DNA of 64,000 bases from positions 26,786,001 to 26,850,000 of the forward strand of contig OZ076409.1 of assembly GCA_964187785.1 (NCBI GenBank). Reading direction: 5' to 3'. The notes under the pieces were generated by a model. It saw only the letters and a list, made by a program, of their open reading frames with translations, did no database searches and had not been told where the DNA came from. Shown in pieces: positions 9,161-54,494 of the stretch (position 1 is its first letter; every line of letters begins with the position of its first letter). The stretch is from Amphiscolops sp. MND2022 (lineage: Eukaryota). Both the position numbers and the translations under genes were made by a program.

Positions 9161-9695
9161 AAATACCGCAAAATCCAAAAAGCCGAAAAAACACGTTTTT
9201 TACAAACAAATTAATCCCTGTTTTTTTTCAAACCGCGAAAGTTTTTATAGAATAGAACTTCCATTGACCTAAACAAGGAAACAATAGGGTAAACAAATCG
9301 CAATTTGGTTTTAAAAATGTTGAATGAAGTTCATTGAGTTTACAACAAAGGTGTCAAAATTTCCAAATTTTCTCAATTTTCGGCACCATAATTCCATTTC
9401 CGGATCATTTCCAAAAAAAAGTACTGCCATCAGTAAACCCACAGGTTCAGGACTGAAACGTGTAGCTACCGGTAGTGTTTCGAGAAGATATCAGACAAAT
9501 TTGTTTGCACAAGTTTCAAAACTTCACTTGAAACCGTAAATTTCGTCCTTATTTGTCATATACTTAATACTCAATGAGCTGCAAGCAAAATCACTATAAT
9601 CTATGATTAGATAGAATCCTCTGATATTGTACTCAATATATTTTTTTTGTGTTTTTTCACAGAATTCAACTGCAAAAAAGTTTTGAAAAGGTAAA

Positions 9696-11365
9696 TGTCG
9701 CATCCACCAAGATGCGATGGTTCCGTAGTGCAGCAGTGAAAAGGAACTCCTGAAGAGACTCAACAATAAAACATTTCAAACCTTTTAAAACTCATTTCAA
9801 TGGTATTTTCACATCGTCATGTAAATTATTTGTTTGCTTATATCGGTGAAGTTCTCTCTGGACTACTCCTTAAGTCCATAAATGATGCTTAACTTCTTTA
9901 AATCTTCTTCATAAACAACACATGTGCATAAAAATCACATAAGCATGATCAATCTACGATTTTTGATGTCACATTATGCGTCATCGTGCTACAATTAGGA
10001 TTGTGAATATACGGTGTTAAACGCTTTTCAAATATCAAAGATGAGTCATTGTACGTAAAATGGTTGTTTGAATATGCGTTATTATGCATCAAATGATTTT
10101 TCTGTATGCGTCATTGTACGTTTGAGTATACATTAAGATACGTTTTAAATTACTAGAGTATGCGGTAACATACCTTTTTATCAATTGTAACATGCATCAC
10201 TATACGGTACTACTAGTGCTGTATATGCATTAACATACGTTTATTGAAATATCATACGTATCGAATTGTGCCGTATATGCATTACTATCCGGATGTGAGG
10301 AAGATGCTCACGTGCGTTGTACGTCTTTGTGCGGTTCCAGGTCCACCGCATATGCGGGATTATGCGTTTTTCAGCAAAAGGTGTAGTTTTGAACGTCATG
10401 CAATTATACATCATTAGATAGCACTAGAGGTGTTTAATATACCATTTTACAGTATTTCTCTAGGGTCTTACAACCGATTAAACAAACGTATGTCATTATG
10501 GGAATGATATAAATAGAATTACGTGATTTGACGTTATCCTATTTTCGTGTTTTCCAGGACTACATGATACTTGTAAAAATGACTGTCATTCTTTTATATT
10601 TTGAAAAGGGGATTTCCTAAATGCAAGACACAATTGAAATAACCTCTCCAAAGTGCAGTTGTATCAATTTCTCCAGGCTCTTGCTAATACTATCAACATT
10701 TTCATTGCTTTCTCCAAGATTGGATTTTCCGTGCCGAGAACATAATTCAAATTCTTCCCCAGCAAACATAACTTGTTTTCTACTGAGTGAAATGGGAAAT
10801 AAGAGGAGTCGAAGATCAAGGAGATTAGCAACCCCATCTCCTGAGAGAGAAACGAGCGAAACTAGAGTTGACTCTCCAGGAACAGGTAATATAACTTTAA
10901 CTAATTCTAATCTAAATGTTCAAGAAAGTTTAGGTCGATTGAACTCGGAAAACCAACTAAGAGAACCCAGTCAGATTAGTGATGAGATACAAGTTTGGAC
11001 TCAGATTGTTGAGCGGAAAAATACTGAAAGAATAGAGAAAATGAGAGAAGAAATGGACAATAAACTAGAAGCAATTTTGAAGGAGATAAAACACAATAAG
11101 GGTGCTTCAATGACGACAAACCCAAGGTCTGATATAAATGAGATACAAGAACCACAACCATCGGGATCCAGGATAGATCCGCCTATAGGAGTTCACGCAT
11201 CTAATAGAGAAAATTCAGATTCTGAAAACGACGATTATCCTCTTAAAGCTTCTAAAACGAAGGATCCCAAACATCCTACTAAACCTTTGTTCCGAAGTGA
11301 ATCGGATATAGACATAAATATATATTCTGACGAAGAATCAGAAGCAGAAATAGAGGATTATCACA
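9696..11365 (+). repeat. 5' LTR (1670 bp)
   Basis: Runs TGTCGCATCC...GATTATCACA. Differs from 24821-26492 by roughly 11 substitutions and one 2-bp indel (counted by eye). TATAAA at 10508. Confidence 0.97.
9970..10300. promoter_or_regulatory. U3 array of bipartite YATGCG-N4-YRTRCG motifs with 32-33-bp phasing (repeated in the 3' LTR at ~25095-25430)
   Basis: Motif starts at 9975, 10008, 10040, 10073, 10105, then 10127, 10159, 10191, 10224. The regulatory role is inferred. Confidence 0.6.
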
Positions 11366-11383
11366 TGGTGACAGGAGCCAACC
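11366..11383 (+). other. Primer-binding site
   Basis: TGGTGACAGGAG... directly follows the LTR-terminal CA. It resembles tRNA-Leu-type PBSs; the identity of the tRNA is uncertain. Confidence 0.75.
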
Positions 11384-12466
11384 GACAGCTCCATAGACAA
11401 AGCTCACAGAAGCTAAACGACACATTAGGATCCCGCGCAGACCAAAACTCGTCAAATATGACACCGAAGCCTCTCGATCCAGTAAATCAGATTGCATTAG
11501 CAATCGAAAAATTGGCAAACAAAAATTCTCCACAGTCATTATTTCATCCTAAAAACACACTCACCTTCAATGGGAAAAATGAGAAAAATGAGAAATTCGA
11601 ATACTTTGAAGACTTATTCCACACAACACTTCGAATGCAACCAAACCTAACAGAGGAAATGAAAATCAACCATTTTCACGCACATCTAAGAGGTTTGGCT
11701 CTCAAAACATTCAAAAACATACAAAGAACCCCAAATACAATCTTAGATGATATTCTAAAGGTCTTCCGCAGAAAGTACGTCAAACCAGAGTCTAGCGCAT
11801 CTGCCAAGCATCGATTCAACAGACTCTCATTTGACCCAGAGAACCAAAAACTCCCGGATTTCCTGGAAGAACTCCAAGAAAGTGCCGATAAAGCGTTTGG
11901 GGACAACGCCCATCAAATGATAGAGAATCTACTCTACGCAAAAATGCCCCCACATCTCAAAAAGTCCATCAACCAAGCCTACCTCGAAAATGGAACATAC
12001 GATCAGATAGTTAAACATCTCGAAAGAGAGATGGAACTTAACCGTCTCGAAGCAGACGAACCCCTAGTTAAAACCCAAATGACCGCTACTAAAAAAGAAC
12101 AAAACACTGAGAAAACTAACAAAAAACCGAACGAAAAAACCAAAAAACAAACGCCTAAAACAGTACTGACAAAACACTCAAAAATAACCAATGCCGTTGT
12201 TGCAAAGAGGCAGGACACATGATGGCCGATTGCCCCAAACTAGCAAAACGACGAAAACTTGAAGAAGACCCGGATGCGGCAAAGTGTGAAAACTGCAACA
12301 CACCAGGTCACGAGGAAGAAAATTGCTACTTTGGCGCCAACATGGAAAATCGCTCACCTAAGTGGAATCTCACTGAAGCCCAAAAGAAAGTTATTGAAGA
12401 ATACAAACAAGCTCGAAAACCGATAAAACCAAAAATCGAACGCGCACAACAATCCACTTCGAAGGA

Positions 12467-12473
12467 TTTAAAC
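12467..12473 (+). other. -1 ribosomal frameshift slippery heptamer (T TTA AAC)
   Basis: The gag frame ends GAT TTA AAC TAG. The -1 frame TTT AAA CTA GAA TTG is the pol frame of ORF 12479-14236. Confidence 0.85.
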
Positions 12474-15400
12474 TAGAATTGCCACGCCTTTGCAAAAAAC
12501 CACTACAAAAATTAGGCCCTGCAGATGTCTGGCAGCATCAGCCGAGCCCAAAACCTACAAAAATCATAAACAATAAAAATGATTCAACAACACAAGAAAC
12601 TCAACCTGAAGATATATATGAACTCTTACATGACGCACCAGACAACTATTTTACACAACAACCAACTTGTCCCACAACTGACTTAACCCCAGAATCCCCA
12701 CAATCACCAAAAAATTATGTCCTAATTAAAACTTCTGGCAATGATGAAAAACAACCTCTTCTCAATGAAGACCTCACCAAACACATACAATTTCACAAGG
12801 AACGAAATTTGTCATATCTTCCGATCTCAACCTCCTTGACATTAAAACGAAAACGCCATATGTACTATATCCCAATGGACTTCGAAAAGCTTACACTTGA
12901 TGGTCTTATTGATACCGGAGCCCTTACAAGTGCGATCTCCGAACAAGATCTTAATAAAATAAAGTTGTTAGCAAATGAAGCACTTAAAGAAACTGGTCCC
13001 CCACCAAACTTCCAAATCATGGTGGCCAATGGACAACTAGAAGTTCCCATTGGTACGGTACTACTGGAATTCGAAGTGGCTGATTTCATGCTAAAAGAAA
13101 ATTTCATCATCATGAAAAATCTACCGAACCCACTGATAGGATTGTGCTTCCTCCGCAGAAACAATGCAATTTTTGATGTCAACCAAAGCATCTTAACATT
13201 TCCCTATCTGTCAATGCAACTTCAACCCGATACCCAAACAGCAATACGCCAAGCAACACCATTATTTGCCGAAAACACCTATACCTTACAACCAGGCGAA
13301 GCCCTTGCAATAGCAAGCAGAATGCCTCACCTAATGGACCATAATGCCACTGGCATAGTTACCCCATCACAACAATACGAAAATCATGATAGCATTTTCA
13401 TTACTGCATCACTCAGCACTGTTAACAACAATGCTATCGGTTATCAAATTATCAACTTTTCAGAATTACCCCATACAATCACAATGGATACCCATTTAGC
13501 AGATTTTAAGATACTAACCCCAGAGCAAATCAAGCATATACAACCAGTTGATCCAGCGTTACTATCGTTCATGATACAATACGAGGAAACAACTGAAGTC
13601 CACATAAATGAACTCCTTAAAGTACCACAACAACATTCAGACCAAGAAACATACTGGTTCCCTACATCTGAAGAACGAGGCGACCCTACAACATACACCC
13701 CAATTCAGCAACGTATATATAATGAACTTCTCGAACTCGAAGAACTCGAGAAACTAAACCCACATGATAGTGAAACCTCCAGAACAGCATTTCTCTCACA
13801 CTTTGATTGGTCTGACACAACACTCAGCTCAGATGAACGCAAAGCAATTGAAGAAATCCTCATTGAGTTTCACGATATTTTTGCCAGACATCGTTTTGAT
13901 ATTGGCATAAATCGTGAATTCAAAGTAAAACTCACACCCAACGATGACAGACCTGCTTATAGCCAAAGTCTACCGACTCCAATTAACCTCAAAGATGATA
14001 TCACTGTGGAACTCGCACTTCTACACAAGTATGGCATCATAACAACTCTACCCTTCTCAAAATACGCAAGCCCAATCTTTGCACAACGCAAACCTAACGG
14101 GCGACTCAGACTTCTAGTCGACCTACGAAAAATCAACAACTTAATCACAGAAGATTACGCCAACAACAACCACCCGGTAAGCACATTATCGGATGCAGCC
14201 CAACATATGGCGGGAAAAAACTTTTCTGTAAACTAGACTGCTCCCAGGCTTACCACTGCCTCCAAATGGCAGATTATCAGTCCATACAGATGCTCGCTTT
14301 TAACTTTGCAAGCAGAACATTCGCATACCGTAGGCTTGCCCAGGGTCTCAGCAGATCCCTTTCAGCATTTTCGAGTTTTATGAGAGACTACCTAGACAAA
14401 GCGATTAAAGCAGACCAATGTGCCCAATATGTCGATGACATAGGCATAGCAGCCAACGACACCAAACAGTTGTGTCTTAACATCAAAACAGTGTTTGAAT
14501 GCATCCGCAATGCAGGATTAAAACTCTCAATGTCTAAATGTCATTTCGGAGTCAAACAAGTCGACTTTCTGGGACGTACAATCACCCCAGATGGAGTCGC
14601 CCCACAATCCGACAAGGTTAAAGACTTCCTCTCAAAGCTTCGTTTTCCTAAATCAAAAAAGGCATTACAAAGGTATATCGGATTTTTGAATTATTACCGA
14701 AACTACATTCCTCGCCTTTCAGAACGTCTAACCCCGTTTTTTAAACTCCTCAAAGAAACTTCCAAGTTCTATGTACCAACAAATTTAGTCGACGACTTCA
14801 CAAGTTTAAACAAACTTCTCGAAAATTCCTGCCAACTGGCACTGAAACAACCACTAAAACACAAACAGCTCATAGTCATGTCTGATGCTAGTTTTACTGC
14901 TGCGGGCTATGCAATCATGACAGAAGATGACCCGAACCAGAAGTTACAATCCAAACGAAAAACCTATGCACCCATAGCGTTTGGATCCAAAACATTCAAT
15001 CCCACACAAACAAAGATGTCAATCTACGCAAAAGAATTCCTTTCCATATACTTCGCATTTGTGGAATTTGGACACCTCATGTGGGGCAACACCTTCCCGG
15101 TAATCGTGTTTATCGACAATCGCTCGGTAACCCGATTCTTTCAAACAAAAATGATTCCTCCAGCACTCTGGAACGCCTGCGATTACGTATTGCAATATAA
15201 TTTTGTCATTGCCCACGTTGCTGGTTCCTTGAATACTGCAGCAGATTTTTTATCCAGAACAGAAGTAAACCCAAAAGAAAAGCTAGAAATGACTATCCGC
15301 AATGACATCTACACAAAGGCAATAGAAGTCCACATCCAATCATCAGGTATCGTAGAAGAAGAACAAATCTACATTCTCCCCGATGATGAAATAGACGAGA

Positions 15401-17334
15401 ATCAACTATGGGAAGAAAAACAAAATGTACGTACACAAGCTCGAAATGAAACCCACAACGAACCAGAAAATGACATCTCTGAACTACAACATTTCCACAA
15501 ACCCACATCGGGTTTGATCTCGGTATCATCAGGATACTTCAGAGACAATGCAAGGATTCGCCTCGAACAAAATAATGACATTGTTCTCAGAAATCTCAGA
15601 GCGAAAATAGAGGGCGAACCCTTTGACGAAAACGATTTAGCATCTGACTATCGATACCACCACTATCTGCAAAACATAACACGGATTGAGATAAAAAAAG
15701 AAGTCCTTACCAGGAAATACTATACGGATACTGGAACAGTATCACATTACCAAATTCTCCTTCCGATTCAACTTGTAGACGAATTCCTCCAAGCCCTACA
15801 TGGTCATAATTCAAACCACCCAGGTATCACGAAAATGATACAAGAAGCAAGACAAAAATATTACTATCCTTGTATGGCAAAGTACATAAAAAAGTGGGTC
15901 AGTAACTGTCAAACCTGCATCCAAACCAAACGTATTAACAATGACCTCCTAAGGACAGAACTCCTTAATTGTCCAGAATGGGATCTAGGTCCGGAAGACA
16001 TCCTACAGATGGATATCCTACCAAACCTCCCTCCGAGCGGAGGATATGATCATATTATCACAGCCATAGATGTCTTCTCGAGGTATTTGTTCGCATATCC
16101 CGTAACTCGTATCACTGCAACAGCAGTATCAAGAGTCGTCATGGATATATTATGCAAACACACCTACCTACCAACGACAATAATCACGGATTTAGGAACC
16201 CAGTTCAACGCACAGGTGACTCAAGAAATTGCAGCAGTACTAGGAATTTAACTTAAACGTGCCACAATGAAACATGCCCAAACAATAGGACTCCTCGAGA
16301 GAACCCATGCCTCAGTGAAAACACATCTGAAAGCTGCAACAGGCGAATTCAGAAATAATTGGCATAAATATCTCCCATTGGCAGTCCTCAACCACAATAC
16401 AACATACCATGCATCACTCGGCTGTGAACCTTCACGAGTTTTCCATGGTAGAATACCACATAATATCCTCGACTACAAACTCGGATATAACCCTAACCCA
16501 CGATACCAACCACAGTCAGATGTGGCAGAAGAAATTCAAAAACGAATGAAAATCCTCTTGGATCAAACTAAGAAGAACATTATGCAATCGTATCTCAAAT
16601 ACAAGGCTTACTATGATCGAAAAGCCAAAGCAGCTCCGCTTGAAACGACGGACTATTGTTACATTCTTAACCCAAAAGCAGATACTCAAGCGACAAAAAT
16701 ACCATTCCGAGAATTCAGATGGTGTGGTCCATATAAAGTAGAAAAAGTACTCCCTAACAATAATTATATTGTCCGGAGACTTGGAACTAACAAAACGCAA
16801 TTACTACACAGGATCCGTTTACGGAAATTCACCCCGCAAGCCCCATTAGCAGACATTTTCGTTCGCGAAACTGATTGGCAAAAAGATGACCAAATGCCTA
16901 TAGCAAATGATGACCTATATGCCCAATCATGGAACACAAATTTTGGGTCTAACCCGTTCGAAGATGGTCCTTCAGAATTCACACAAGACACTGAAGACGT
17001 TGAATATACTCCAATTCAAACACCTGATGATAACCGCCCTCCCTCCCCAGGATCTTCAAAAAATAAGGAGGGGAGCCCAGTGGAACAGACCACTGAACCA
17101 AATCAAGATTACGACAACCATGAAAATGAAATACCACAACACATCAATGAAGATAATCAAAATACCCAAAAAACTTAAGAAAAACCAAATAGTACACCAG
17201 TTGACGATATCCCAAAAACCCCAGAAAATTCACAAAATACCCCATTGCAAGAAGAACCCATAAATACTCGTGGCGAAAAATATAACCTACGCCCCAACCC
17301 CAACCCAAACTTTTCACACTCGTACAGATACTAA
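12467..17334 (+). pseudogene. pol: Pol polyprotein (protease, RT, RNase H, integrase), disrupted
   Basis: LIDTGA protease; RLLVDLRKIN and YVDD RT; IVMSDAS RNase H; HHCC plus D-D-E integrase; terminal YNLRP. Lesions: a frameshift in the A-run at ~14215 and in-frame TAA codons at 16249 and 17176. Confidence 0.95.
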
Positions 17335-17547
17335 AAACAAATCACTGACAAATTTTCCTTTAAACTCGAGGACTTGAAACTCATAATACTATCCTCCTTG
17401 TCAGCATTCCAAAGAAATTGCAATAAATACATACAAACGAAGATAACGTAAATCAAGTTTATAAAACGAGTTAACAGAGTCTGAAAGTTCAAAATTGCAT
17501 CAATCCTTCTTTTCTCTGGTCTTCTTGACTTTTCCCTTCCTACCTTT

Positions 17548-20500
17548 TTATACTCCGGGCTCCATCAGTGTAGCAGGAGTCACTTTAATAGGCATTAGTT
17601 TGGGAGACAGCCCAGATCCAGGTGAACTAGTGGTGCTCGACGAATGACTTACACTGGGTGTAGTAGCTTCCAGAAATATAGGCAAACCTTCACTCAGCAG
17701 CACAGACCTCTTGTAAGCCGCCTCGAATTTCTCTAACATAGATGACATCCGGACCCCACTTCCACGCAAAAAACTCCAGATGGAAAACTTCTTGTCGTTG
17801 ATTAATTCACGTCCTCGCCCAAGCAATCGGAAGATTCTTCCCACCGATTTAGAGTCTCCATACAGACTAGAGACGTTAGGCACAGTGACATAAGATAACT
17901 GCAAGCTCCTAACCACTGATTCAAAGGCATCATGGTCAAATTTTAACTCTGGAATAGAAACCTCGAATTTGGCAGGGATTGTGATCACAGGCGGTAGACA
18001 CAAGCAAGCAACACGAAATACACGTGATAGCTCAGTCCGACTCTGCATCTCATAATGAGAACCTAAGTACAAAACCCAATCACATCGGGGGACATTGTCG
18101 TTAGCTCGTAATTTAGTAACAAAGGAGCGGTACTGGCTCACTGCCTTGGTCTTGTCCCCTGCTGAAATTACACCTGTAGAGACGAAGTAACTTGTAAGAT
18201 CCTCAATAGCAATGGTATAATTTTGTTCCGAACCATCCAGAATAACAGCATGGTCAAAACAAGAAAGTCCTCGAAGCAGTGTTGACTTTAAAATATCATG
18301 GGACAACAATATACTGCAAAATGACTTGCAGAAAGCCATGGATTGTTCAACAAATCGACTAGGACGAGGCAGCCGACTGGAGGTAACGAGATAGTGGAAA
18401 TCAGGATTAAGAGCAAACTCAGCTGGAGTTTTCAGAGGTAATTCAGTGCCCGACAAATCGATCTTCAAATATGAATCCCAATTCGAATTGTCTCCAAGGA
18501 AACTGTCCGGTAGCAAGTTTTGTAACTGACTATACACAAAGACGGTGAATTGGTTGAAAATCCTGAAACCTTGATTCATTTCTCCTTGTACCTCGGCGAA
18601 CGCGAAGTTGTCTGAAACAAACTTATGAATACAGCTATACAATTTTTAGCATGAAATATAGAAGTGTGTACACTTCACTATACCGTTCAAAAACTTCAAC
18701 TATGAGGTGTTACGCGAAAATCCTAGCTATTTACTCGGTATCCCCGCAAAAAATCTCAGAAATATATACCGCAAAATGCGAGATGTTGCCATTGTGTATA
18801 CGGTAATACACAAATTTTTTGTGATTCCATTCTCACAACGTTTCAAATTTGTTTATGCGCAACCATACGGAAAAGGCTAGTTCTTATGCGCCAATATGCG
18901 TGTTTTCCGTGTCATTCAACAAGCAATTACAATAGCATTATCACAAGACAATTAAGCGTCACCAAGCGAATTAGAGAAGAATGCATATACGTAGTTCTAC
19001 GGAACTCAAACCCTCACCATTCGTTAACATACGGAACTTGGAATCTGATTATGCGGCGCTGTGCGGAACTTGGAATCTGATTATGCGGCGCTGTGCGGAA
19101 CTTGGAATCTGATTATGCGGCGCTGTGCGGAACTTGGAATCTGATTATGCGGCGCTGTGCGGAATTTGTATTCTGGTTACGCAGTATTATCCGGAATTTG
19201 AATTCTATATATGCAGTACTACGCGGAATTCGAAATACAGTCGTACGCTACTATGCGGAATTCGAACTACAGTCGTACGCTACTATGCGGAATGAAATGG
19301 AGAGTATATAAAGTTGTGCAAAATTCAGATTTGAGCTGGACGGCGTAATGAAAGACATGACATGACGTATATGCGCTGAAGTACGGAATTTAGAAACCCG
19401 AGAGTGAAACATGTAGATCCCAATATGGAATTAAAAACCACACGTATTTGGGCTACGGAACTAACTTGCGACCTTCGCGACAGAGGAAGACTTTACGAAT
19501 AGATACCAGGGTTTACAAAACAAACAAGATAGTCTTAAATACAAATCATGGAAAGCATTTGAAAAATAAGAGGGAAATAAAAGTTCACTAACAGTGATCA
19601 ATGGCACATCAGATTACGAATAAACGCGCTAAGTACGCGGTGTCCAATCGGAAACACTCATCTAGGGAAGTAGGCTATAACACAAACGAAAAGTAACCTA
19701 TTTGGAAGACGTTTTTCGGAAGTGGGTGTGAAATTTCAACACTTACTTTTCTCATGTGAAATCGGTATTCCGGCATTCGTGACACCTGTGCCAGGTGGTC
19801 CTTGATTCTGTCCCAATTAGTGGAAAAACATTCAATCAAAGCAGATGCTTCAGCCAGGTTGTACTCCAGAGTTAATATGGACTGAAAAAAGAAATTGGTC
19901 AACGACACTCATGGCTTGTTTTGTGTTAGAAACTCGGAAGTAAAACACTACCTTGTGAAGGACAGGCAGTGAATGGACCCAATCCCGATCGAGTGCAGTG
20001 CGTAATTTTAGGAGCAGGTAATCGATAATTGTTCGGAAATCGTGACGCTCAATTATTTTGGCAGTTGGGGTAGCCAAACACTTTTCAAACTCAGCAGGAC
20101 TAAAGCTGTTGACAATGCTGGGTTTCGGATCACAATTCAGTACAGAGATTAAACAACTGCTAAGCTTCTCTTCCATATCAACCAAACAAATGCAATTGGG
20201 TGGAGACTCAAATAAACTCAAGAGAGAAGATATCAAGATGAGAATTTTCTTAGGGACTAGCACGCCCCGAGGACCTGTCCCAATACAAACTCGCTGGAAA
20301 ATGTTCCCAGACCAAAAGGATAAGAAGAGGAAAGAGTGGGTCGGGGATCGTTGCAGGACTAGCGAGTAATTTTCAGAAGAAGTAATGTGGGTAATGCAAT
20401 AACTGATGAGTCCACGGAACATATATACCAGCATTCCCTGAAACATAGGCTAGTGGTCAATTTTTGATCATAGTTAGAAGGGGTGAATGTGCAAAAGATG

Positions 20501-22237
20501 AGGTTTAGTTACTATATGTAAATTGCAAAATGTAGTAAATACTTACGAAGATTCGTGAGCTCTCCCAAATGAAGGGCTGGAAATCACTGGTCGTAGAAGT
20601 ATGTTGCAAAATCTCGTCGTGAATTCCGATTAGACTAGCAAGGGGTCCTCCATGTTTCAACCCAAATTCCAAAACCCGCAATTGAGCCAACACAATCTCG
20701 ACCGGACTGGAGTCACCTTTTATGTCTGGTAGCCTGTCTTGCCCCACAAGCAACCTTCGAGGACCAAGTTGGGGTGGTATTGGGTAAGTGTCCTTAGCTG
20801 TCCTTTTTGCTTCTTGTAAAGCAATACCTTGCAACTCTACCTCTTCACGGTCATAAAGGGCCAAACCTGGTGTTTCCATCCGGATTCTATGTTCTTTTAC
20901 GAGATGGGATTCTGTCTTGTAGTGCGATATCATTTCCAAGGGTCCTCGGCTCATTAGGGATAATTCAAGTTTGCACACCCTACACCACCATTTGTAAGGG
21001 GTTTTTTCTTTGTCAATCGGCCCAGTTGCAGAAAATTTCAATACTGGGTGTTTTCTGAACATACTTTCAGTCAAGCAATACCGAGGCCTTGGTCGCTTGG
21101 CTGGTCTCAGAGGATTTTCTTCGGGATCAAATTCGGTTGTGTTCCCCCGCTCAAGGGCGCCTCGATCGGTACTAGTTGGGCAATGTGGAGAGAGTTCTGT
21201 GCTGGGTCCAGGTGGATTTTCAACGACTGAGACAGTAAGACCGGGGGACAGAACGTTTTCCCCTGACAAGAATGATTGGGGAATGCGACTCAACACGTTG
21301 GTTAAAGCTATGACCTCATTTCGAGTAATGCTGATGCTGGCATTGGTCACTGGTGGTGAGGAAGTATTGAGCTCCGCCGACAAAGATTGAGGAGCTTGGA
21401 AAATCTCGTTTGTGTCCCCCATAAGAGTAGTTTGTCCCATCGGTAAATGGTCGCTGATAAATGAGTCAATTCGTTGATCCACAGGTAAGTACTGTGAAAA
21501 TCGGGGGGAATTAGTCCGTGATGAAATAGCAGCAGCAAGACTATCCATGAGTTGAGAAGTGAATGTATCCTGTAAGGCAGAAGTGGAAGCAATAGGAGGT
21601 GTAGCGCTTTGGGTTTCGTGAGGCTGTTCGCCCGCTTCAGGATTTTCCTCAGAATTTTCAGGAAGAACACTGCATTCTTGGGTTCCGAAGGGGTTCTGTG
21701 TGTCCACAACGGCTTCTTGTTCTACTCCTTCTTGTGCAGGGCGGACAAGAGTTGGAGGTGGGATGCTGTATACGGAAGGCTCAGACTGATTAGGCGAAAC
21801 AACTTGGAGGGGAGCATAAACCTTCTCAGGAGACGGCTGAGGCGATTTCTCCACGATCGCGAGTTTACCTAAAATGATTGGTTTATAAATCCAAACAGAC
21901 AAATTGAAATTTTTGACTTAGATCTGCTGTGGAAACCTTTTTACCGGACGCGGTGATTTGAATAGAAAAAGCGGAAGTCAAACTAATTTGAGACCGGAAG
22001 TAGAAATATTTCCAAGACAAAATTCTGATCTGAGTATTCTCTTGATCGCAAAATCGGTGAATTCATAGTCCGGCCAACTATGTTATTCTTAACAAATTCG
22101 AAACTGGAAGAAATGAACCAAGACAAAAGTTCAAACTCACCTGGAGAATCAGCTGTCGGGGACTTGTATCCCCAAGATCGGGTCCTCATTCTGGAAACGA
22201 ACTCCTGGGAAAGACTCCGTCCTCTATTGTCACTCAT
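17548..22237 (-). CDS. Antisense spliced accessory gene: hAT-transposase-derived protein with a BED-like zinc finger
   Basis: Predicted exons 22237-22141, 21868-20547, 20437-19952, 19881-19747, unresolved small exon(s) at ~19675-19465, and a last exon at ~18611-17548. The first three joins are phase-compatible GT-AG introns. Motifs: KWWCRVCK...SHYKTESH, and LLRGLSCFD...AVSQYRSF...ELSRVFRVACLCL. Confidence 0.72.
19000..19290. repeat. 32-bp minisatellite inside the predicted intron of the antisense gene
   Basis: Four perfect copies of CGGAACTTGGAATCTGATTATGCGGCGCTGTG (19032-19159), with in-phase degenerate units at 19000, 19160, 19192, 19224 and 19256. Confidence 0.95.
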
Positions 22238-22559
22238 GATGCTGAATTGGAAACCCTCAGTGATCTCCAATGACCCAATTAATAATTTAATGGAATGAGG
22301 TTTGGAGGACAAACTGAATAGACTAATAAAAGGACTAGAGTAGAATTTTATAAAAGTATAAATGTGTATTAAAACTGACAAAACCAATATAGGAAGGCGT
22401 GGCGATCTAAACGAAAGGCAAAGAGCAAATGCGCTCAGAAATTGTACTGGAATTGGTAGTACGCTCTAATATGATTGGCCAATTAGAATGTCAGTCACTT
22501 CTGCCAGAGTGTCCGATTACGTAATTGGCATATTAACAACACATGTGAAAGCAAAAGTA

Positions 22560-22980
22560 AATAGACCTGCGGTAATATACAAACTTACTACATACGCTAA
22601 TACGGTGATCTGCAAAATACCAGCATTCAATGTACAGCAACATGCGAACTTTGGATTGCAATTATGCGCAATTATGCGGATTCACAAATGGACAATATAC
22701 AGCAACATGCGGACTTTAGATTGCAATCACACGCAATTATGCGGATTCACAAATGGACAATATACAGCAACATACGTTTTTCAGATTACAACTATGCGTA
22801 ACTATGCGGATTTACGGATGAACAATATGCTGCAAAATGCGGATTTGCAGTTGCAATTATACGTAAATACACAAATTTACAGATGAGCAATATGCGGCTG
22901 CACATGTACTTGTGACTTACAAACATACGGCAATATGCGGAAATATGATTGTAGTCTATGCGTCAATATGCGGAATAAAG
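22560..22980. repeat. Degenerate 32-bp repeat array with a 64-bp higher-order period, between the divergent accessory genes
   Basis: TATGCG-CAAT-TATGCG units. The block GCAATTATGCGGATTCACAAATGGACAATATACAGCAACAT is duplicated 64 bp apart. Confidence 0.8.
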
Positions 22981-23835
22981 AGAAAAAGAGCACGTGCTGG
23001 TATGCAGTATGAAAGCGAAGAAGAATTGAATGACACGTAATCATTTGAGGAATTAAAACAAACAACTTCACTCTGACGATCGAATGAGTCATGGCCAGCA
23101 CGCGGTAGCATGCGGATCCTAGTATTGATGTATAAGCAGTCTTAAGTACTTTGGAAGAAAGAGATTGTGGGACGGCGTCCGAAGCAATATACACAGAGAT
23201 GCATATTAAAATGCATTGAGTCAACCCGAATGGATAGACCTCTACCAATCTACCTCGTTGTGAGAGGCTATCACAGGTACCTATCTTAAAAGTTTGTGCC
23301 TTTTCAAAACGCGGGACATCGAATGATATACTATGTCGCGATCATGTGATCTTTAAAAAAAAACTTGGTAAAACATTTAAACATTCATGCAATATGTTCA
23401 GCCTTGATATGAGTTTCATTGACGCTTCTAAATAAAATTATATTGAGCAGTTAATTCATTCATTTTTTGTGGCATCCTAGGTGAAGATATTTGTTTACAT
23501 CATATTTAAATGTAACTGAAACAAAACTAGAAAGATCAAAAGGAAACTGCCGTTGAAAGATATGACAAACGAAGTCACACTCATTTTGTTTATTTACATA
23601 TGTGGAAGAAACCAAAACCTAACCCCTCTTTCATACGGTGACCCGCCACCTACATCCCATATAAGGTGTTGCTAGACTCACGAAATCATGACACCCAATT
23701 TTTTGGCGGGGTTCCGTCTAAATCAAGTCAAACTGAAAAGAAGATTCACCATATGGTCTTTACAATTTCATAAATCAGTCGCCTTGTAAAACTTTTGAAA
23801 ACCTGAAAAGCTAAATAGTTCTCCGCAAATCAAAA

Positions 23836-24864
23836 ATGAACAAGCTTCAATTCGACATCGATGAAGACTCACTATACTCCCCTATCTCCCCTGATGTGGT
23901 GGACATCTCGAGCGGGTCAGAAGGTGAGTTCTCCATTGCCCCCGGAGACGTGACCCAACTCAACGATAGATTCCGTATAGACACAACTGGGAGCAATTTA
24001 ATGTCAGCATTTATGGGAGCGGCAACAGCCACTTTGTACCCTGATACAGAAATGTCGCCAAGACAGGACCCAGCAACGATCGCATCTGGAACTCAGTTGG
24101 AGAGAGAACTTATGGACCTAATTGAAGTCCCTCAGAACGGACTAATGGAATCTCCAGGTTCGTTTGAAGACAGCGAGTTTGAGGAGGGGAATCTCTTCCC
24201 ATGGACCATGGGCGTTGGCCCCGAAAGAACTACAAACAACTATGGTCGTCCCGCCGCAAGGGTCCTCCCTACTCTGAGGACAAATTCCAGCGACAGTGGG
24301 ATCTTACCCCGTCCAATCCCGATCTTTCCGCCAAATTACAGGCAAGAACAAACAGGCTTTCAACAACGAACAACAAGGGAGCCAATGGAACAAGAGGTAC
24401 GAAATAATACAATCCCACAACAAAGAACAACGCGAGAAAACTTCACAGGGTTTAATTTATCCCCAATGCTGTTCCCCCTCAACATTAGTGGATTAGACAG
24501 CGGAACTCAGCCTTTGGAACAGTTGATGCAACCCACTGTTCAACTGGGGTTTCCGTTCAACACGACCCACAGCACGAACTCACTCCTAATTCCGGCCCAA
24601 GAAAGACATAGCATCCGGTTGATACCCACTGTTATGGCCAACGTCGCAGGATATTGTGAACTCTGCGGAAAATGCTATGATCAAAGCGCTCTGGAGACTC
24701 TGGGAGAGTATCTGGTTGCAACGGAGTACGAGGGTGAAACAGTCAAGGAAAGGACAATCAGATCAAGGGCATTCATCCACGGGTTCGAAGCAGCATTGTT
24801 CCTTTTTAAAAATGCGGGACTGTCGCATCCACCAAGATGCGATGGTTCCGTAGTGCAGCAGTGA
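23836..24864 (+). CDS. Accessory sense ORF (342 aa) of unknown function: acidic, disordered N-terminus and a C-terminal CxxC helical domain
   Basis: Intact ORF with ATG in an AAAAATG context. It reads through the PPT and stops 44 nt inside the 3' LTR; AATAAA follows at 24890. Confidence 0.7.
   Translation: MNKLQFDIDEDSLYSPISPDVVDISSGSEGEFSIAPGDVTQLNDRFRIDTTGSNLMSAFMGAATATLYPDTEMSPRQDPATIASGTQLERELMDLIEVPQNGLMESPGSFEDSEFEEGNLFPWTMGVGPERTTNNYGRPAARVLPTLRTNSSDSGILPRPIPIFPPNYRQEQTGFQQRTTREPMEQEVRNNTIPQQRTTRENFTGFNLSPMLFPLNISGLDSGTQPLEQLMQPTVQLGFPFNTTHSTNSLLIPAQERHSIRLIPTVMANVAGYCELCGKCYDQSALETLGEYLVATEYEGETVKERTIRSRAFIHGFEAALFLFKNAGLSHPPRCDGSVVQQ
24808..24820 (+). other. Degenerate polypurine tract
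   Basis: AAAAATGCGGGAC lies immediately before the 3' LTR TG and overlaps the coding sequence of ORF 23836-24864. Confidence 0.5.
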
Positions 24865-26492
24865 AAAGGAACTCCTGAAGAGACTCAACAATAAAACATT
24901 TCAAACCTTTTAAAACTCATTTCAATGGTATTTTCACATCGTCATGTAAATTATTTGTTTGCTTATATCGGTGAAGTTCTCTCTGAACTACTCCTTAAGT
25001 CCATAAATGATGCTTAACTTCTTTAAACCTTCTTCATAAACAACACATGTGCATAAAAATCACATAAGCATGATCAATCTACGATTTTTGATGTCACATT
25101 ATGCGTCATCGTGCTACAATTAGGATTGTGAATATACGGTGTTAAACGCTTTTCAAATATCAAAGATGAGTCATTGTACGTAAAATGGTTGTTTGAATAT
25201 GCGTTATTATGCATCAAATGATTTTTCTGTATGCGTCATTATACGTTTGAGTATACATTAAGATACGTTTTAAATTACTAGAGTATGCGGTAACATACCT
25301 TTTTATCAATTGTAACATGCATCACTATACGGTACTACTAGTGCTGTATATGCATTAACATACGTTTTTATTGAAATATCATACGGATCGAATTGTGCCG
25401 TATATGCATTACTATCCGGATGTGAGGAAGATGCTCACGTGCGTTGTACGTCTTTGTGCGGTTCCAGGTCCACCGCATATGCGGGATTATGCGTTTTTCA
25501 GCAAAAGGTGTAGTTTTGAACGTCATGCAATTATACATCATTAGATAGCACTAGAGGTGTTTAATATACCATTTTACAGTATTTCTCTAGGGTCTTACGA
25601 CCGATTAAACAAACGTATGTCATTATGGGAATGATATAAATAGAATTACGTGATTTGACGTTATCCTATTTTTGTGTTTTCCAGGACTACATGATACTTG
25701 TAAAAATGACTGTCATTCTTTTATATTTTGAAAAGGGGATTTCCTAAATGCAAGACACAATTGAAATAACCTCTCCAAAGTGCAGTTGTATCAATTTCTC
25801 CAGGCTCTTGCTAATACTATCAACATTTTCATTGCTTTCTCCAAGATTGGATTTTCCGTGCCGAGAACATAATTCAAATTCTTCCCCAGCAAACATAACT
25901 TGTTTTCTACTGAGTGAAATGGGAAATAAGAGGAGTCGAAGATCAAGGAGATTAGCAACCCCATCTCCTGAGAGAGAAACGAGCGAAACTAGAGTTGACT
26001 CTCCAGGAACAGGTAATATAACTTTAACTAATTCTAACCTAAATGTTCAAGAAAGTTTAGGTGGATTGAACTCGGAAAACCAACTAAGAGAACCCAGTCA
26101 GATTAGTGATGAGATACAAGTTTGGACTCAGATTGTTGAGCGGAAAAATACTGAAAGAATAGAGAAAATGAGAGAAGAAATGGACAATAAACTAGAAGCA
26201 ATTTTGAAGGAGATAAAACACAATAAGGGTGCTTCAATGACGACAAACCCAAGGTCTGATATAAATGAGATACAAGAACCACAACCATCGGGATCCAGGA
26301 TAGATCCGCCTATAGGAGTTCACGCATGTAATAGAGAAAATTCAGATTCTGAAAACGACGATTATCCTCTTGAAGCTTCTAAAACGAAGGATCCCAAACA
26401 TCCTACTAAACCCTTGTTCCGAAGTGAATCGGATATAGACATAAATATATATTCTGACGAAGAATCAGAAGCAGAAATAGAGGATTATCACA
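24821..26492 (+). repeat. 3' LTR (1672 bp)
   Basis: Near-identical to 9696-11365 and followed by the TSD GTAAA. Confidence 0.97.
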
Positions 26493-26500
26493 GTAAATAG
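25919..26500 (+). CDS. LTR-encoded truncated Gag N-terminus (stop codon supplied by flanking host DNA)
   Basis: Copy of the gag 5' part (ORF 25748-26500). It runs past the LTR end through the TSD to TAG at 26498-26500. Expression is unknown. Confidence 0.45.
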   Translation: MGNKRSRRSRRLATPSPERETSETRVDSPGTGNITLTNSNLNVQESLGGLNSENQLREPSQISDEIQVWTQIVERKNTERIEKMREEMDNKLEAILKEIKHNKGASMTTNPRSDINEIQEPQPSGSRIDPPIGVHACNRENSDSENDDYPLEASKTKDPKHPTKPLFRSESDIDINIYSDEESEAEIEDYHSK

Positions 26501-27630
26501 CAATTGTATTTAGGGAAAAACAATAGTGTAAGAAAACTGAGCTTTCATGTGTGAAAAACGTAACTTGAGCTGCACTTTGCATTGTGATTTGGTTCATTTT
26601 TTTGCATTCATAAAGTTAGGGTTTTGAAAAACATACTGAGTGTTTTAAATAAAAGAAAACGCCTCAATTAGCAGATTATATTGACATTAACTTTGTGTAA
26701 AAATTTCGTATTAAAAGAAAATTCGACAATCTTTGTAAAGAAAACAAACTGATTTAAGACAGGGAAAGGAAGCAACAGGGAAGGACAGGGAAAACCTGTG
26801 TTCAAGTGAAAATAAATACCGTTCTCTTAATTCAAAACAGTCAAATCTCCTCAACGGATAAAAAAAGTACTATCAACAAAACAAAACCTTGAAATAACGT
26901 GTCAAATCTGAGAATAAATTGGCTGTCATGATGTCCCACGTAGTATTTCAGTAGTAAAGACAATCGATGGAAATTGAATCATGAATTTGCCTTTCTACTC
27001 GCAAAGCTTAACTAAATTGTAGAATATTTGTTGATTCGGTTTTCGAAAAACCTGGTTGGGTAGGAAAATTGAGAACATTCTGTTTTGGTCCAATTTTTTT
27101 AAACAGTGCTGTTTGAGAAAATTATTATTACAGTGACTGATTATTACAGTAACTACCTTTATTCAGCATGTCATGGAAGAGTCCACTTTTTGTTGAGTTT
27201 ACTCATTTTCGTTAGCGAATTCATACCGTCCTGGAGCAAGTCCAAAACGCATAAAGCGCGAAATTTACATGGCTAGATGGAACCTTTTGGGTGTTTTCGG
27301 CAGTCTGAGACTTGTGGTAGTTTTTTATCTCGCAAACATGCCTCTCGTTGGAGATTTTTGCCACAAACTGTGCGAGACATTCCTTACACTACAGTATTTA
27401 GTTAATAGAACTAGGTCATTTGCTACTTTAAACTTGATAGATTTGACTGCTACGTTATCAGTGCTGAAAAACTCGGTCTTCGTTTTGTTGTTGTTTGTGG
27501 TTTCAAGCTCTTTCCAATCATGGAATGTTTGAGAGCCGTGTGGTTTCCTTTCATGTATTTGCTTTCAAGTATATGGTTCCATAAATGAAATTATATGTAT
27601 TTTTTTGTTCTCTAGGCAATGTTGGACACT

Positions 27631-46749: not shown

Positions 46750-48464
46750 TGTGAAATTTTTGATTCTTTGGCGTTTCAGAAAAAAACCCATCTTTTTTGC
46801 GCGAATCACAGGTTATAGATCGAACTAAATTTCAGACATTCCACAATGTGTAAATCAGTAAAAACAGCTGAAAAGGCGAATTTAGCGTATTTCGTTAATG
46901 ATTTTGGCAAACGGAATAATAGAAAGTGTGAACTCGATTGTTTGAGTAATATAGAATCGACGTCAACAACGAAATTGTTCGAATTAGCTAAGTTAGAATC
47001 GACTGCTTCGAACGAATTTTGCTAAGTCTTTATTTTGGACGGAAACAGAGATCTGAGGGAAAAAAGGCCACCCTCCCTTTTTGGGAAGGACTTATCCGAT
47101 CAAGCTGAAAATTGGCTTGCATTAACTAGAGGTGTTAACTCAACTTTCGACTCGGAGTACTCGACCTCGTACCTCCCCCCAGTCCCGAGCTATTAGCACC
47201 GGAAGTGACCCAGGTCCACCCCCTACGAACTCGTCGGCCAAGTACGGAAAAAGTCGAATTATACATAGAATTGATAGCCCATATGATATTAGGCCGTTTG
47301 CGCACATTTTCGGACACCCACGACGTGTGTAGGAGGAGTACGGACCCTAAGTAAATAAACCCCGAATGTTATGTAAATAGCCAGCGGACGACCCCAAGAT
47401 CATGAAACTTACCCAAGATGTTCACCTAGCGACCCTAAGTAATATACATGAAAGATACATTGATCGATCCACTACGCGCGGAGTAATGTTTGTTTAAGGC
47501 ATGCGGGACCGGACGCACGGGCCCGGCCGATAAATGACATTTGACCTTGGCTTGTAATATATCAAACGAACCGGAATAACGAATGTAGTTGATTGCGATT
47601 GTGAACGGATCAGTATTCATAACCCATGCGGGGGTAACCGCCTTAAGTAAACAAACAATACGCATAACATGTAACTCGGGACCCGTTGACCCTAGGATGT
47701 TATAACTTGGTATATAGCAAACTTGGATGAGAGCCAATAACTTCAAGGTCACCGATGGACCTCAAGGTCATTTTAGATGCAACCCCTGAGGAGATAGGAA
47801 AACGTACATTAAAACATGTAAATCAGCGTCTGTAAGTGATAATTTATGCAATTCAGTCAGGCGGAACGATTCGCGATGTATTTCACCTAGGATGATAGAA
47901 AAGTACCCCTTACGCGTAGAGAACATGTATACCATGTAGTTGAAGGTCATTGAGCAATTTCTTCGATATTAAAAAAATCTTGGGTGACTTGGATTATTAT
48001 TGAAATGTGGACTTCGATCAAGATGATGAAAGATTTATCGTTGGCGGCAAGGAATGTTTAGTCGAAGTATAATTAGACGCGTTCACTATGCCATAAAAGG
48101 AATAGTAAACATGAAGGTAAACTCATGCAGATTTAAGACGCCGACGCCCTGTATGTAACGAAAATGTCAAGTATGATAGAAAGTCAAGATGAGATGACCA
48201 GAAACACGTGCGAAGAACAAATATAACTGAGGCGGCATTAGAACATAATTGAATAGACAGAACCGAGTTAGAAGGCTGGGAGCAAGTTGAGTCTCGCGGA
48301 GACAAGATACTTCTTCGGATAAATACTCACGCTTCTCGACAACCGAGTTAGAGAGCTAGAATTCAGTTGAGCCTCTGGACGGGGGCAAGAGATTCGAACT
48401 GGCTGGAGTAACTGGTCGTCGTTAACTCCGGGAGTCAGTGACAGAAACTGTACAAGTCCGGGAC
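46750..48464 (+). repeat. LTR1, 3'-truncated by a 444-bp deletion that also removes the PBS and gag start
   Basis: The junction GGGAC|GCGAG joins the equivalents of 53197 and 53642, with AC microhomology. Confidence 0.9.
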
Positions 48465-53495: not shown

Positions 53496-53622
53496 GTTGC
53501 GCATCTGGGTGGGCTTTGCTTTGCTTTCTTTTACTGGTTACGTTTTACAACATTTGTTTCGAGTTCTGGATTCCAACTTGAACATATATTCGTAGAGTTG
53601 GATATTATACAAGGATTTCATT

Positions 53623-54494
53623 ATGGATCAAGACGCAAAACGCGAGCTGCTTGAGTTTGCGATGCAGGCCGTTGGAAGAGCAGTGAAAGGCAATCAGAAT
53701 CGAGTCTTCAATTACGGAACCATTCGACCAGATAGGTTTCCTTCGAGTTCGTTTGCCGATTGGGTTCAATGGAAGACCCACTTTATCGCAGTGGCCGAAG
53801 CGAATAGGTGGACAGACCCAGAGGCTATCGGTGCACTGCCAGTGTGTTTGAGTGGACATGCCTTGGAAGAGTTTCAGGCAGCACCCCGGGAACTGAAGAC
53901 TCAGGTAGTGAATCGACGGGCGCCTACTTTACGAGCACTCTTTGAGCACTTGGACCAAGTGATGGGAGTCACAAGAAACGATAGAGCAGGGCGCAACGAA
54001 TTCAAAAGTTTGGTTCAGAAGGAGAGCGAACCCTTGAGGGAGTTTGCACGTCGCGTTCGCAATTTGGGACTGCTGGTCTTTGGTCATCAGGAAGCAGATC
54101 AGCGAGACGAATTGTTCCGTGAACGTTTTTTAGATGGACTATCAGATTCAGACCTGCTAGGAGTTTTGCTACGAGAACGAGCGCATGGATTTGTTGGTAC
54201 TGTGGATAGAGCGGTGGAGTTGGAACTATTGCCAACTCAGCAAGAACTAGGCCGAGCACACGAGTTGTGTACGCCAGGCTTGCACAGGAGTCAGCTGTTG
54301 CAGCTGAAGATCGAACTGCAGTGACGGAGACGAAGCAGCAGTTGGATGAAAGGACTAGGGCATTGAGCAGTCTGACGAATATGGTGGGACAATTTGTTTC
54401 TACAGTGGTCAGTGCCCGTCGATGCGATGTGTGCGGCGAAGATGGTCACCCTGCAGAAGTTTTTCGACTCATCAGGAATCCTTTAAACTTGTGA
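53623..54494 (+). pseudogene. gag: Gag-like protein (frameshift at ~54226) with a degenerate zinc knuckle
   Basis: PDRF...DWVQWKTHFIAVAEANRW...LPVCLSGHALEEF...QKESEPLREFARRVRNL...RERFLDGL is typical retrotransposon capsid sequence; CDVCGEDGHPAEVF knuckle remnant. Confidence 0.85.

Follow-up and report, generated by a model that had tools for sequence, protein, structure and literature searches.

A 16.8-kb Ty3/Gypsy element of Amphiscolops sp. with a conserved accessory gene module and motif arrays at three places

We analysed a stretch of 64,000 nucleotides from Amphiscolops sp. MND2022 (assembly GCA_964187785.1, contig OZ076409.1, positions 26,786,001 to 26,850,000), hereafter the window, whose own positions are used below. 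Positions 9696-26492 of the window form a single Ty3/Gypsy element of 16.8 kb on the + strand, with a region of about 7.5 kb behind pol (17.3-24.8 kb of the window), here called the cargo, that precedes the 3' long terminal repeat (LTR). The family has many other copies, some closer and some more distant, and this element is a decayed one among them; in our judgement it probably represents a large and old animal clade of 'complex' Ty3/Gypsy elements in which an accessory module is an integral part. The module comprises a five-exon antisense gene for a zinc-finger protein (the finger gene), an antisense exon for a second protein (exon A) and a sense open reading frame (ORF) for a protein of 342 amino acids (ORF E). 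It would also include three control regions: one in the unique 3' region (U3) of the LTR before the TATA box, one in the gap between the two antisense blocks and one in the gap from which the finger gene and the sense ORF diverge. Arrays of a short motif found at these three places would serve one sequence-specific factor as iterated binding sites on duplex DNA, and this factor would link the LTR promoter with the internal promoters of the accessory genes.

Presence and conservation of the accessory region

The element is bounded by direct LTRs with TG..CA ends and by a 5-bp target-site duplication (TSD), GTAAA, on both sides, the arrangement of an LTR retrotransposon. The left TSD copy (9691-9695) abuts the outer end of the 5' LTR (9696-11365, + strand) and the right copy (26493-26497) that of the 3' LTR (24821-26492, + strand). 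The LTR pair (1672 bp) differs by 11 mismatches and 1 gap, that is 99.2% identity or 0.8% divergence. A previous reading of the same DNA, made from the letters only (the sequence-only reading), had proposed a single TSD-bounded element of 16.8 kb, and these borders agree with it.

We searched the 1.07-Gb assembly of the organism using positions 17400-24800 as query. Cargo DNA recurred at at least 21 other places, with identities from 97% down to 69%. All seven loci that spanned the cargo (L002-L006, L014 and L015) were colinear with the window, showing integrase, cargo and 3' LTR in this order. For more distant relatives, we examined the 10 kb that follow gag-pol in seven further copies, whose gag-pol was 79-84% identical to that of the window. 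Translated searches recovered homologues of the cargo coding blocks A, B and C (antisense) and E (sense) in all seven, with order and orientation unchanged; the high-scoring segment pairs showed 37-60% protein identity across most of each protein, and most of them were free of stops. The cargo DNA of these seven relatives was mostly beyond alignment with the window. None of the copies and relatives that we examined lacks the module, which rules out a one-off nested insertion of the cargo, and its retention despite unalignable DNA points to selection on a regulatory or counter-defence layer.

One of the colinear loci, L006 (C5:63822875-63832874), showed a mosaic of identities when compared with window positions 15900-25900: high across 17300-22100 (94-99%) and 23500-24500 (89-98%), and low across 22100-23500 (52-75%) and 24500-25700 (67-77%), but with a bin of 89% at the LTR junction. 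This pattern looks like recombination between subfamilies.

We estimated the ratio of non-synonymous to synonymous substitution rates (dN/dS) between the window and the two loci L014 and L015, which are about 74% identical to it. The ratio was 0.08-0.09 for block A and for block B, 0.05 for the C-terminal half and 0.20-0.23 for the N-terminal half of block C, and 0.05-0.07 for the sense ORF E, compared with 0.05-0.06 for the integrase measured identically. Two non-conserved control ORFs with stops, ORF D and ORF F, gave 0.43 and 0.60, respectively. Two + strand ORFs opposite true exons also had low ratios, yet contained stops in the relatives; their low dN/dS is explained by the bases that they have in common with those exons. 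On these ratios the cargo is coding and under purifying selection. The sequence-only reading had proposed to check whether the cargo is present in other copies and whether its dN/dS is below 1: all seven spanning loci and all seven relatives hold it, and the ratios of approximately 0.05-0.2, like those of the integrase, exclude neutral evolution.

Four other ORFs of the cargo were rejected as genes, all of them non-conserved and with stops in the relatives: ORF D (21983-22465, minus strand), which partly overlaps exon 1 of the finger gene, ORF F (22877-23341, minus strand), ORF G (22470-22886, + strand) and ORF H (18727-19080, + strand).

Structure of the antisense genes and of the sense ORF

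The finger gene lies on the minus strand. Exon 1 (22141-22237) begins with the ATG at 22237 and includes 32 codons plus 1 base, with its donor in phase 1. Exon 2 (20547-21868) encodes the N-terminal half of the protein, a basic patch, the finger and then helices, and has a dN/dS of 0.05 in its C-terminal half and of 0.2 in its N-terminal half. Exon 3 (19952-20437) has 162 codons and a dN/dS of 0.08-0.2, exon 4 (19747-19881) has 45 codons and was delimited from minus-strand alignments, and exon 5 (19588-19674) is the last one, with the relatives' stop at 19590-19588. In the relatives, exons 1 to 5 total 2124 nucleotides, that is 708 codons; exon 5 of the window copy carries a premature stop (19611-19609), 7 codons ahead of the stop of the relatives. 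The four introns have conserved GT..AG borders with matching phases, and in the minus-strand alignments their interiors are rich in indels and substitutions and the exons are conserved. Judged from this comparison, the finger gene is a real five-exon antisense gene. The antisense spliced zinc-finger gene and the divergent sense ORF of the sequence-only reading were thus both recovered, the former with its four introns and the latter as the conserved ORF E. Introns that are antisense to the + strand genomic RNA are not spliced from that RNA and survive retrotransposition.

The second antisense coding block, exon A (17551-18611, minus strand; 353 codons), opens in phase 1, at a conserved acceptor with branch point, pyrimidine tract and CAG. 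The block requires an upstream exon, since the first ATG in its frame is not conserved. Splicing from exon 4 of the finger gene to A was rejected, because the phases differ (0 and 1, respectively). Exon 1 of the finger gene ends in phase 1, as the acceptor of A demands, and exon 1 plus A sum to 1158 nucleotides, exactly 386 codons; for these reasons A is probably joined to exon 1 by alternative splicing from a single antisense promoter. The alignments indicate that block 17551-18611 is a separate exon or protein that does not continue the reading frame of the finger gene. Protein A of the window copy ends 17 codons short of the relatives.

The sense ORF E (23836-24864, + strand; 342 amino acids) starts where conservation begins, at 23836, and runs into the 3' LTR, which contains its last 14 codons; it ends 44 bases into the LTR.

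Intron 1 of the finger gene contains the best-conserved non-coding stretch of the cargo, a block at 21900-22100 with 81-83% identity to L014 and L015 (92% between those two), whose reading frames have stops. It may be a control element within the intron, or else an exon that has escaped recognition. Two CTTCCG motifs were observed in this block.

Accessory proteins

A Pfam scan of the cargo gave no match for any of the seven ORFs scanned. Each of the three accessory proteins had about 90-100 relatives in a large protein collection, all of them from ENA assemblies, unnamed and without Pfam domains, and all three proteins are orphans. The finger protein has about 700 amino acids, with a fast-evolving N-terminal half that is probably disordered, a basic patch and the invariant motif C-x2-C-x16-H-x5-H-x4-H. 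The region of the finger is 64-74% conserved, compared with about 40% for the whole protein, and is among the best-conserved stretches of the accessory proteins. Protein A is all-helical and has about 350-380 amino acids. The protein of ORF E is acidic and rich in serine at its N-terminus; its C-terminal domain is conserved and contains two invariant cysteines.

A profile search with the finger family against 1.84 billion representatives gave 376 matches; among the 150 matches listed, all were exon-sized but one protein of 646 amino acids. One remote match, P0364, was at most 35% identical to anything in the genome of Amphiscolops sp., and because of this low identity the finger family must also be present in other species. 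Within this genome, the same family gave 7500 first-look candidates and at least 135 scored places with finger exons, which gene finders could mistake for host genes.

The AlphaFold models of the finger-containing part and of protein A were both of middling confidence: the mean predicted local distance difference test score was 69.2 for the former, confident for residues 70-170, and 68.6 for the latter, confident for residues 12-206. Foldseek comparison of both models with the PDB returned nothing at E<=0.001. In a wide structural search (VIA), the best Z scores, 5.2 (finger model) and 4.9 (protein A), were under the level that the tool treats as meaningful; the neighbours of the finger model were TUT4 (Z 5.2), TUT1 (Z 4.2) and SF3a-type proteins (about 4), all weak. 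Profile searches of PDB sequences gave no match at E<=1 for the finger protein and protein A, and for ORF E only two BolA2 rows (E 0.47-0.48), which we judged to be chance. The protein atlas gave no usable match for protein A or ORF E, and ORF E was left with no family and no solved relative in these searches.

Motif arrays at three places

Sites of the motif TATGCG/TATACG are clustered at three places of the element: in the U3 of the LTR (9950-10380, + strand), upstream of the TATA box, with the corresponding cluster of the 3' LTR at 25075-25507; in the internal cluster Z2 (18750-19300), which includes 4.6 tandem units of 32 bp; and in the internal cluster Z3 (22540-22990), which includes 3.6 tandem units of 65 bp. 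The core ATRCG was counted 11, 14, 17 and 12 times on the + strand of the 5' U3, Z2, Z3 and the 3' U3, respectively, and 3, 0, 0 and 2 times on the minus strand. The rest of the element predicts about 0.5-0.6 occurrences per zone (0.46 in the 5' U3), which gives Poisson probabilities of 1e-12 to 1e-21, and none of the 2000 mononucleotide shuffles made for each zone gave more than 5. The longer form ATGCGG had 21 of its 29 + strand sites of the window inside the element, and 2 of the 8 on the minus strand.

The sites are regularly spaced. Distances within the arrays were 10, 22-23, 32-33 and 42-43 bp, and additionally 65 bp in the U3 cluster. Rayleigh analysis of three independent sets, the window (n=41), L014 plus L015 (n=120) and the seven distant relatives (n=203), gave periods of 10.9-11.3 bp with R of 0.71-0.83 (10.9-11.0 bp and R 0.82 in the window). 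Tandem Repeats Finder reported units of 32-33 bp, or doubled units of 65-68 bp, with 67-97% identity between units. Each unit consists of two direct TATGCGG half-sites 10 bp apart, that is one helical turn, followed by a variable spacer. The pairs of half-sites one turn apart and the three-turn spacing of the units argue for binding on one face of duplex DNA.

The motif, its three places and its spacing were kept in all six aligned copies and in all seven distant relatives. The motif was identical in these 13 copies and relatives, which span 40-97% protein identity, and the array zones themselves were only 47-72% identical between subfamilies and beyond alignment in the distant relatives. The clusters of the relatives held 9-18 sites on the + strand and 0-5 on the minus strand. 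The sequence-only reading had described three distinct arrays of the same phased motif; the three clusters, the shared motif and the phasing stand, with the correction that one of the three counted is the U3 array, which is present twice. CpG was barely depleted, with observed/expected ratios of 0.94 (window) and 0.86 (element), which suggests that the CpG-bearing motif is not eroding as it would under heavy germline methylation.

About 130 bp separate the end of the U3 cluster from the TATA box that follows it at 10508-10515. Z2 is flanked by the finger gene's end on one side and by the acceptor of A on the other. Z3 lies between ORF E and a conserved palindromic CCAAT element (22472-22484), a putative core promoter element next to exon 1 at the start of the finger gene. 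The TATA-like sequence CCATATAAGG (23657-23666, + strand), about 170 bp upstream of the ATG of ORF E and identical in all four aligned sequences, is a candidate internal promoter. From this arrangement we infer that the arrays are regulatory and that the element has internal promoters. Their context would fit two readings: shared upstream control modules, or boundaries between transcription units.

Some further observations concern these zones. A palindromic CACGTG (E-box) is found at the end of Z3 (22991-22996) and is kept in all four aligned sequences. A TATA-like box on the + strand behind Z2 (19303-19312) was rejected as a promoter, being not conserved in L014 and L015. A sigma-70 promoter and terminator scan of 22000-24000 uses a bacterial model and is uninformative for this element. 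Finally, in a still more remote lineage of this type of element, read at one locus whose E protein is 32% identical (L047, C1:84622000-84625500), the gap before the E homologue has no TATGCG cluster, and at about 1590-1650 of this locus there are four TATGAT sites spaced 10, 23 and 9 bp with a CCAAT element nearby. This is a hint of co-divergence of motif and protein, at one locus and too little to build on.

Origin of the accessory proteins

The sequence-only reading suggested that the element may have captured a dead DNA transposase, with hAT BED fingers as the model, which now acts on the element's own arrays. The integral character of the cargo, the selection on it and the conservation of the arrays were upheld, and the transposase capture was not. 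None of the 130 members of the three protein-family alignments (0 of 46, 0 of 38 and 0 of 46) matched zf-BED or Dimer_Tnp_hAT at E<=1. We also aligned six hAT transposase ORFs of the same genome (496-697 amino acids) and compared this alignment with our families by hhalign, which returned probabilities of only 0.1% (protein A) and 0.3% (finger protein), though the Dimer_Tnp_hAT model has at least 150 good matches elsewhere in this genome. The PDB-sequence profile searches described above likewise gave no support, with 0 matches at E<=1 for these two proteins.

A few weak signals point in the direction of a transposase. The Hermes hAT transposase ranked second against the protein A model (Z 4.8, root-mean-square deviation 7.3, 177 residues), a similarity that we treat as a lead within the range of noise, and the Foldseek rows of the finger model included the BED domain of ZBED1 (E 1.3) and ZBED2 (E 2.1), which is noise level. 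With 22.0 bits, one of 30 remote representatives, P0364, exceeded the gathering score of zf-BED, which is 20.6 bits. As in hAT transposases and BED-finger proteins, aromatic residues stand ahead of the C-x2-C...H...H finger; unlike the hAT transposases, the cargo proteins gave no match to the hAT dimerisation domain, and a transposase core was not detected in the profile comparison or in the two fold models.

Taken with the family-wide presence of the module and its dN/dS of 0.05-0.2, which refute the 'one-off' and the 'neutral' versions of a capture, these results make a recently captured, neutral, dead hAT/BED transposase or a one-off nested insertion very improbable. The 'dead hAT transposase' reading is not supported, as a transposase body was nowhere shown. 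The finger itself may be BED-like in origin, and an ancient derivation from a BED-finger protein is possible.

Candidate factors for the arrays

A module of accessory genes and control regions built into the element is a live reading of the cargo. As to the factor that would bind the arrays, we lean slightly towards a host protein; a protein encoded by the element, with the finger protein as first candidate, carries somewhat less weight, and something else less again. Most LTR enhancers, like the Su(Hw) array of Drosophila gypsy, work with host proteins, and one finger whose fold neighbours bind RNA would be a poor candidate for a DNA site of 7 bp; both points favour a host factor. The constancy of the array motif at 40-59% identity of the accessory proteins fits a host factor at least as well.

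The core idea of the sequence-only reading amounts to a self-regulator, in which the finger protein, alone or together with the acidic ORF E protein, would bind the TATGCGG arrays for trans-activation of the LTR and internal promoters or for anti-silencing. Three orphan, nuclear-looking proteins under strong purifying selection lie beside the arrays, the start of the finger gene is 60-500 bp from Z3, and the finger region is 64-74% conserved across lineages with an unchanged motif. A basic patch ahead of the finger and the acidic N-terminus of ORF E, as read from the sequence, would also suit such a role, as would the remote relative over the zf-BED cut-off and, as a hint from a single locus, the four TATGAT sites that replace TATGCG in L047. 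By analogy, foamy viruses, HTLV and VANDAL may be taken as precedents. The motif is, however, identical where the accessory proteins are only 40-59% identical, whereas the VANC motif diverges along with its protein, according to the text available to us (PMC5735166). Moreover, the fold neighbours of the finger are RNA-binding proteins, all of them weak, and no DNA-binding family was found for any of the three proteins by Pfam, PDB profiles or the protein atlas. On balance, self-regulation is a tentative proposal. If an animal Gypsy clade does carry its own transcription circuit of the complex-retrovirus type, with the finger and an acidic partner produced from internal promoters and binding the TATGCGG sites of U3 and of both internal control regions, which we regard as possible but not to be presumed, then a self-activating or anti-silencing loop independent of host enhancers would be common to thousands of related copies.

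The same arrays could instead be docking sites for a host chromatin protein, acting as boundary, insulator or tether, and the accessory proteins would then be unrelated in role and might serve RNA export, particle assembly or the countering of host defence. The arrays are exactly at the borders of transcription units (U3; A/finger gene; finger gene/E), the motif has stayed unchanged in deeply diverged lineages within a single host genome, and the helical phasing suits co-operative binding to one duplex face. Yet no host factor with the array motif was identified, the U3 array directly upstream of the TATA box suits an enhancer equally, and Z2 would be intronic, not a border, if exon 1 splices to A. 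We consider this explanation, including the separate roles that it would leave to the accessory proteins, unlikely.

Less likely still is that the motif acts on single-stranded nucleic acid, recognised by an RNA-binding finger protein or by Gag, for the export, packaging or protection of unspliced RNA. The Z2, Z3 and 3' U3 clusters are all on the genomic (+) RNA, and the strand bias is 14:0 and 17:0 internally and 9-18 against 0-5 in the relatives. The best fold neighbours of the finger, RNA-binding fingers of the U1/matrin type, are in line with this proposal but weak, and Cer1 of C. elegans encodes a protein required for the export of its genomic RNA, as described in the available part of PMC10309623. 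Against it, the period of 10.9-11.3 nucleotides and the half-sites one turn apart are what duplex DNA predicts, and a spacing period has no obvious meaning on RNA. Strand bias is also expected from head-to-tail duplication, and the Rfam scan of 9600-26600 matched no RNA family.

Several points weigh against an integral module whose arrays bind one factor on duplex DNA. The splice sites, the promoters and the junction of exon 1 with A are all read from comparison between copies. Only the best candidates of the genome searches were scored, and 'all copies' means here all examined copies. The nearest solved folds of the finger, in weak matches, are RNA-binding U1/matrin-type fingers, and a single finger is thin for the recognition of a 7-bp site. 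The arrays are tandem repeats that turn over, and therefore part of their periodicity and strand bias stems from duplication and not from selection. Enhancer sites do not usually keep so strict a + orientation, which could reflect action on single-stranded nucleic acid. Finally, the window copy has a broken gag-pol and two truncated accessory genes.

Comparison with known systems

Animal LTR retrotransposons are usually viewed as machines made of gag-pol, with env or without it, that rely on transcription factors of the host. Complex retroviruses depart from this scheme: HTLV-1 has an antisense spliced gene, HBZ, and the Tas protein of foamy viruses acts on the LTR and on an internal promoter. 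The element of the window is similar to them in its accessory genes beyond gag-pol, one of which is by our gene model antisense and spliced, in its probable internal promoters and in having one cis motif both in the LTR and at internal places. It differs in that no env-like ORF and no relationship of sequence or fold to these viruses was found, and in its Gypsy-order pol of an invertebrate-style element. Regularly spaced sites inside a Gypsy-type element are also known from the Su(Hw) array of Drosophila gypsy, an insulator with about a dozen sites for one zinc-finger host factor. That array stands alone, lies in the 5' untranslated region and is bound by a host protein, in contrast to three arrays of a different motif in our element.

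Among published elements, the plant Retand/Tat/Grande group comes closest to ours. Retand is described, in the portion of PMC11963269 available to us, as having a long region between pol and the 3' LTR, conserved antisense ORFs suspected to be regulators, and tandem arrays, and the parallel with HTLV is drawn there as well; 'gene23' of Grande and the survey of Steinbauerova 2011 are known to us as cited in the accessible text of PMC8220671 and PMC6431247. The group and our element thus share a long region between pol and the 3' LTR, conserved antisense ORFs and tandem arrays (PMC11963269) and, as far as the sources available to us go, accessory proteins without relatives outside the elements. 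Unlike the plant elements, ours has an animal host, carries no TRP28/Transposase_28 or other Pfam domain in the cargo, and combines two antisense products with a sense ORF. The animal nature of the host is also indicated by a Pao-type protease fragment elsewhere in the window, BEL/Pao elements being restricted to animals. The element also has one bipartite motif common to the U3 and two internal sites, which the portion of PMC11963269 available to us does not report for Retand.

VANDAL transposons of Arabidopsis and their VANC proteins combine an accessory protein with arrays of short motifs in the non-coding DNA of the element, according to the parts of PMC5735166 and PMC10398659 available to us. 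Element-encoded accessory proteins and motif arrays in the element's own DNA are what our family shares with them, known in our case from sequence. VANDAL is, however, a plant DNA transposon, and its motif and protein diverge together in the text available to us, unlike the motif described here, which is unchanged across lineages with 40-59% protein identity.

In animals, a review of giant transposons mentions, in its accessible text, LTR elements that occasionally capture ORFs downstream of pol and the planarian Burro, and the word 'antisense' does not occur in that text (PMC6431247). No LTR element of an animal that combines shared arrays with spliced antisense accessory genes came up in our literature searches, which left the majority of subscription journals and Repbase Reports uncovered. 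What sets our case apart from the plant group is the animal host, the orphan proteins, the combination of two antisense products with a sense ORF, and a motif common to U3 and internal sites. This lineage has kept three orphan proteins and arrays at three places through divergence beyond DNA alignment, and the corresponding regulatory or counter-defence layer is undescribed for animal Gypsy elements as far as the literature searches reach. With a defined 33-bp unit and three candidate proteins, the family offers a tractable case for asking whether non-retroviral retrotransposons evolve their own trans-acting regulators, a question that has been posed, and is likewise unanswered, for the plant Retand/Grande elements.

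The LTR promoter and the gag-pol region

Gag-pol (10792-17178, + strand) was delimited from Pfam matches and ORFs and comprises gag, a CCHC knuckle, protease, reverse transcriptase, RNase H and integrase. Pfam recovered strong matches to RVT_1 (1.4e-18), RT_RNaseH (1.8e-13), Integrase_H2C2 (1.1e-15) and rve (5.3e-10), and also Integrase_p58_C; the matches to Retrotrans_gag, zf-CCHC and the aspartic protease were weak and under their cut-offs. The order protease, reverse transcriptase, RNase H and integrase is that of Gypsy elements. In the window copy, three frame changes and one in-frame stop break gag-pol at four places, and together with the finger gene and protein A, both truncated near their ends, this marks the copy as decayed.

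The TATA box TATAAATA (10508-10515, + strand), the putative core of the LTR promoter, is kept in five of the six other aligned LTR sequences, including that of L015 at 78% identity; in the aligned LTRs the exceptions are a single-base change and a loss through a 14-bp deletion. A primer-binding site is predicted from the sequence right behind the 5' LTR (11366-11383, + strand), where it begins with TGG.

An open frame of 248 codons crosses the part of the LTR formed by the repeat region and the unique 5' region into gag (10621-11365, and 25748-26492 in the 3' LTR). A conserved ATG at 10792, about 280 bp past the TATA box, encodes Met-Gly-x-x-x-Ser, a myristoylation-type start, and the relatives have stops upstream of this ATG. 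Because of the conserved ATG and these upstream stops, gag-pol probably starts at an ATG within the LTR.

Other repeats in the window

Outside the element, the same three + strand ORFs (258/242, 207 and 272 amino acids) were found at 48371-50624 and at 53596-55801, about 5.2 kb apart; the set had no Pfam match, and it was either duplicated in tandem or belongs to another repeat that is present twice. Positions 61823-63458 (minus strand) contain retroelement fragments in broken frames, among them a Peptidase_A17 (Pao-type protease) fragment at 62961-63458 (3.3e-7) and an Integrase_H2C2 match under the cut-off (8e-5).

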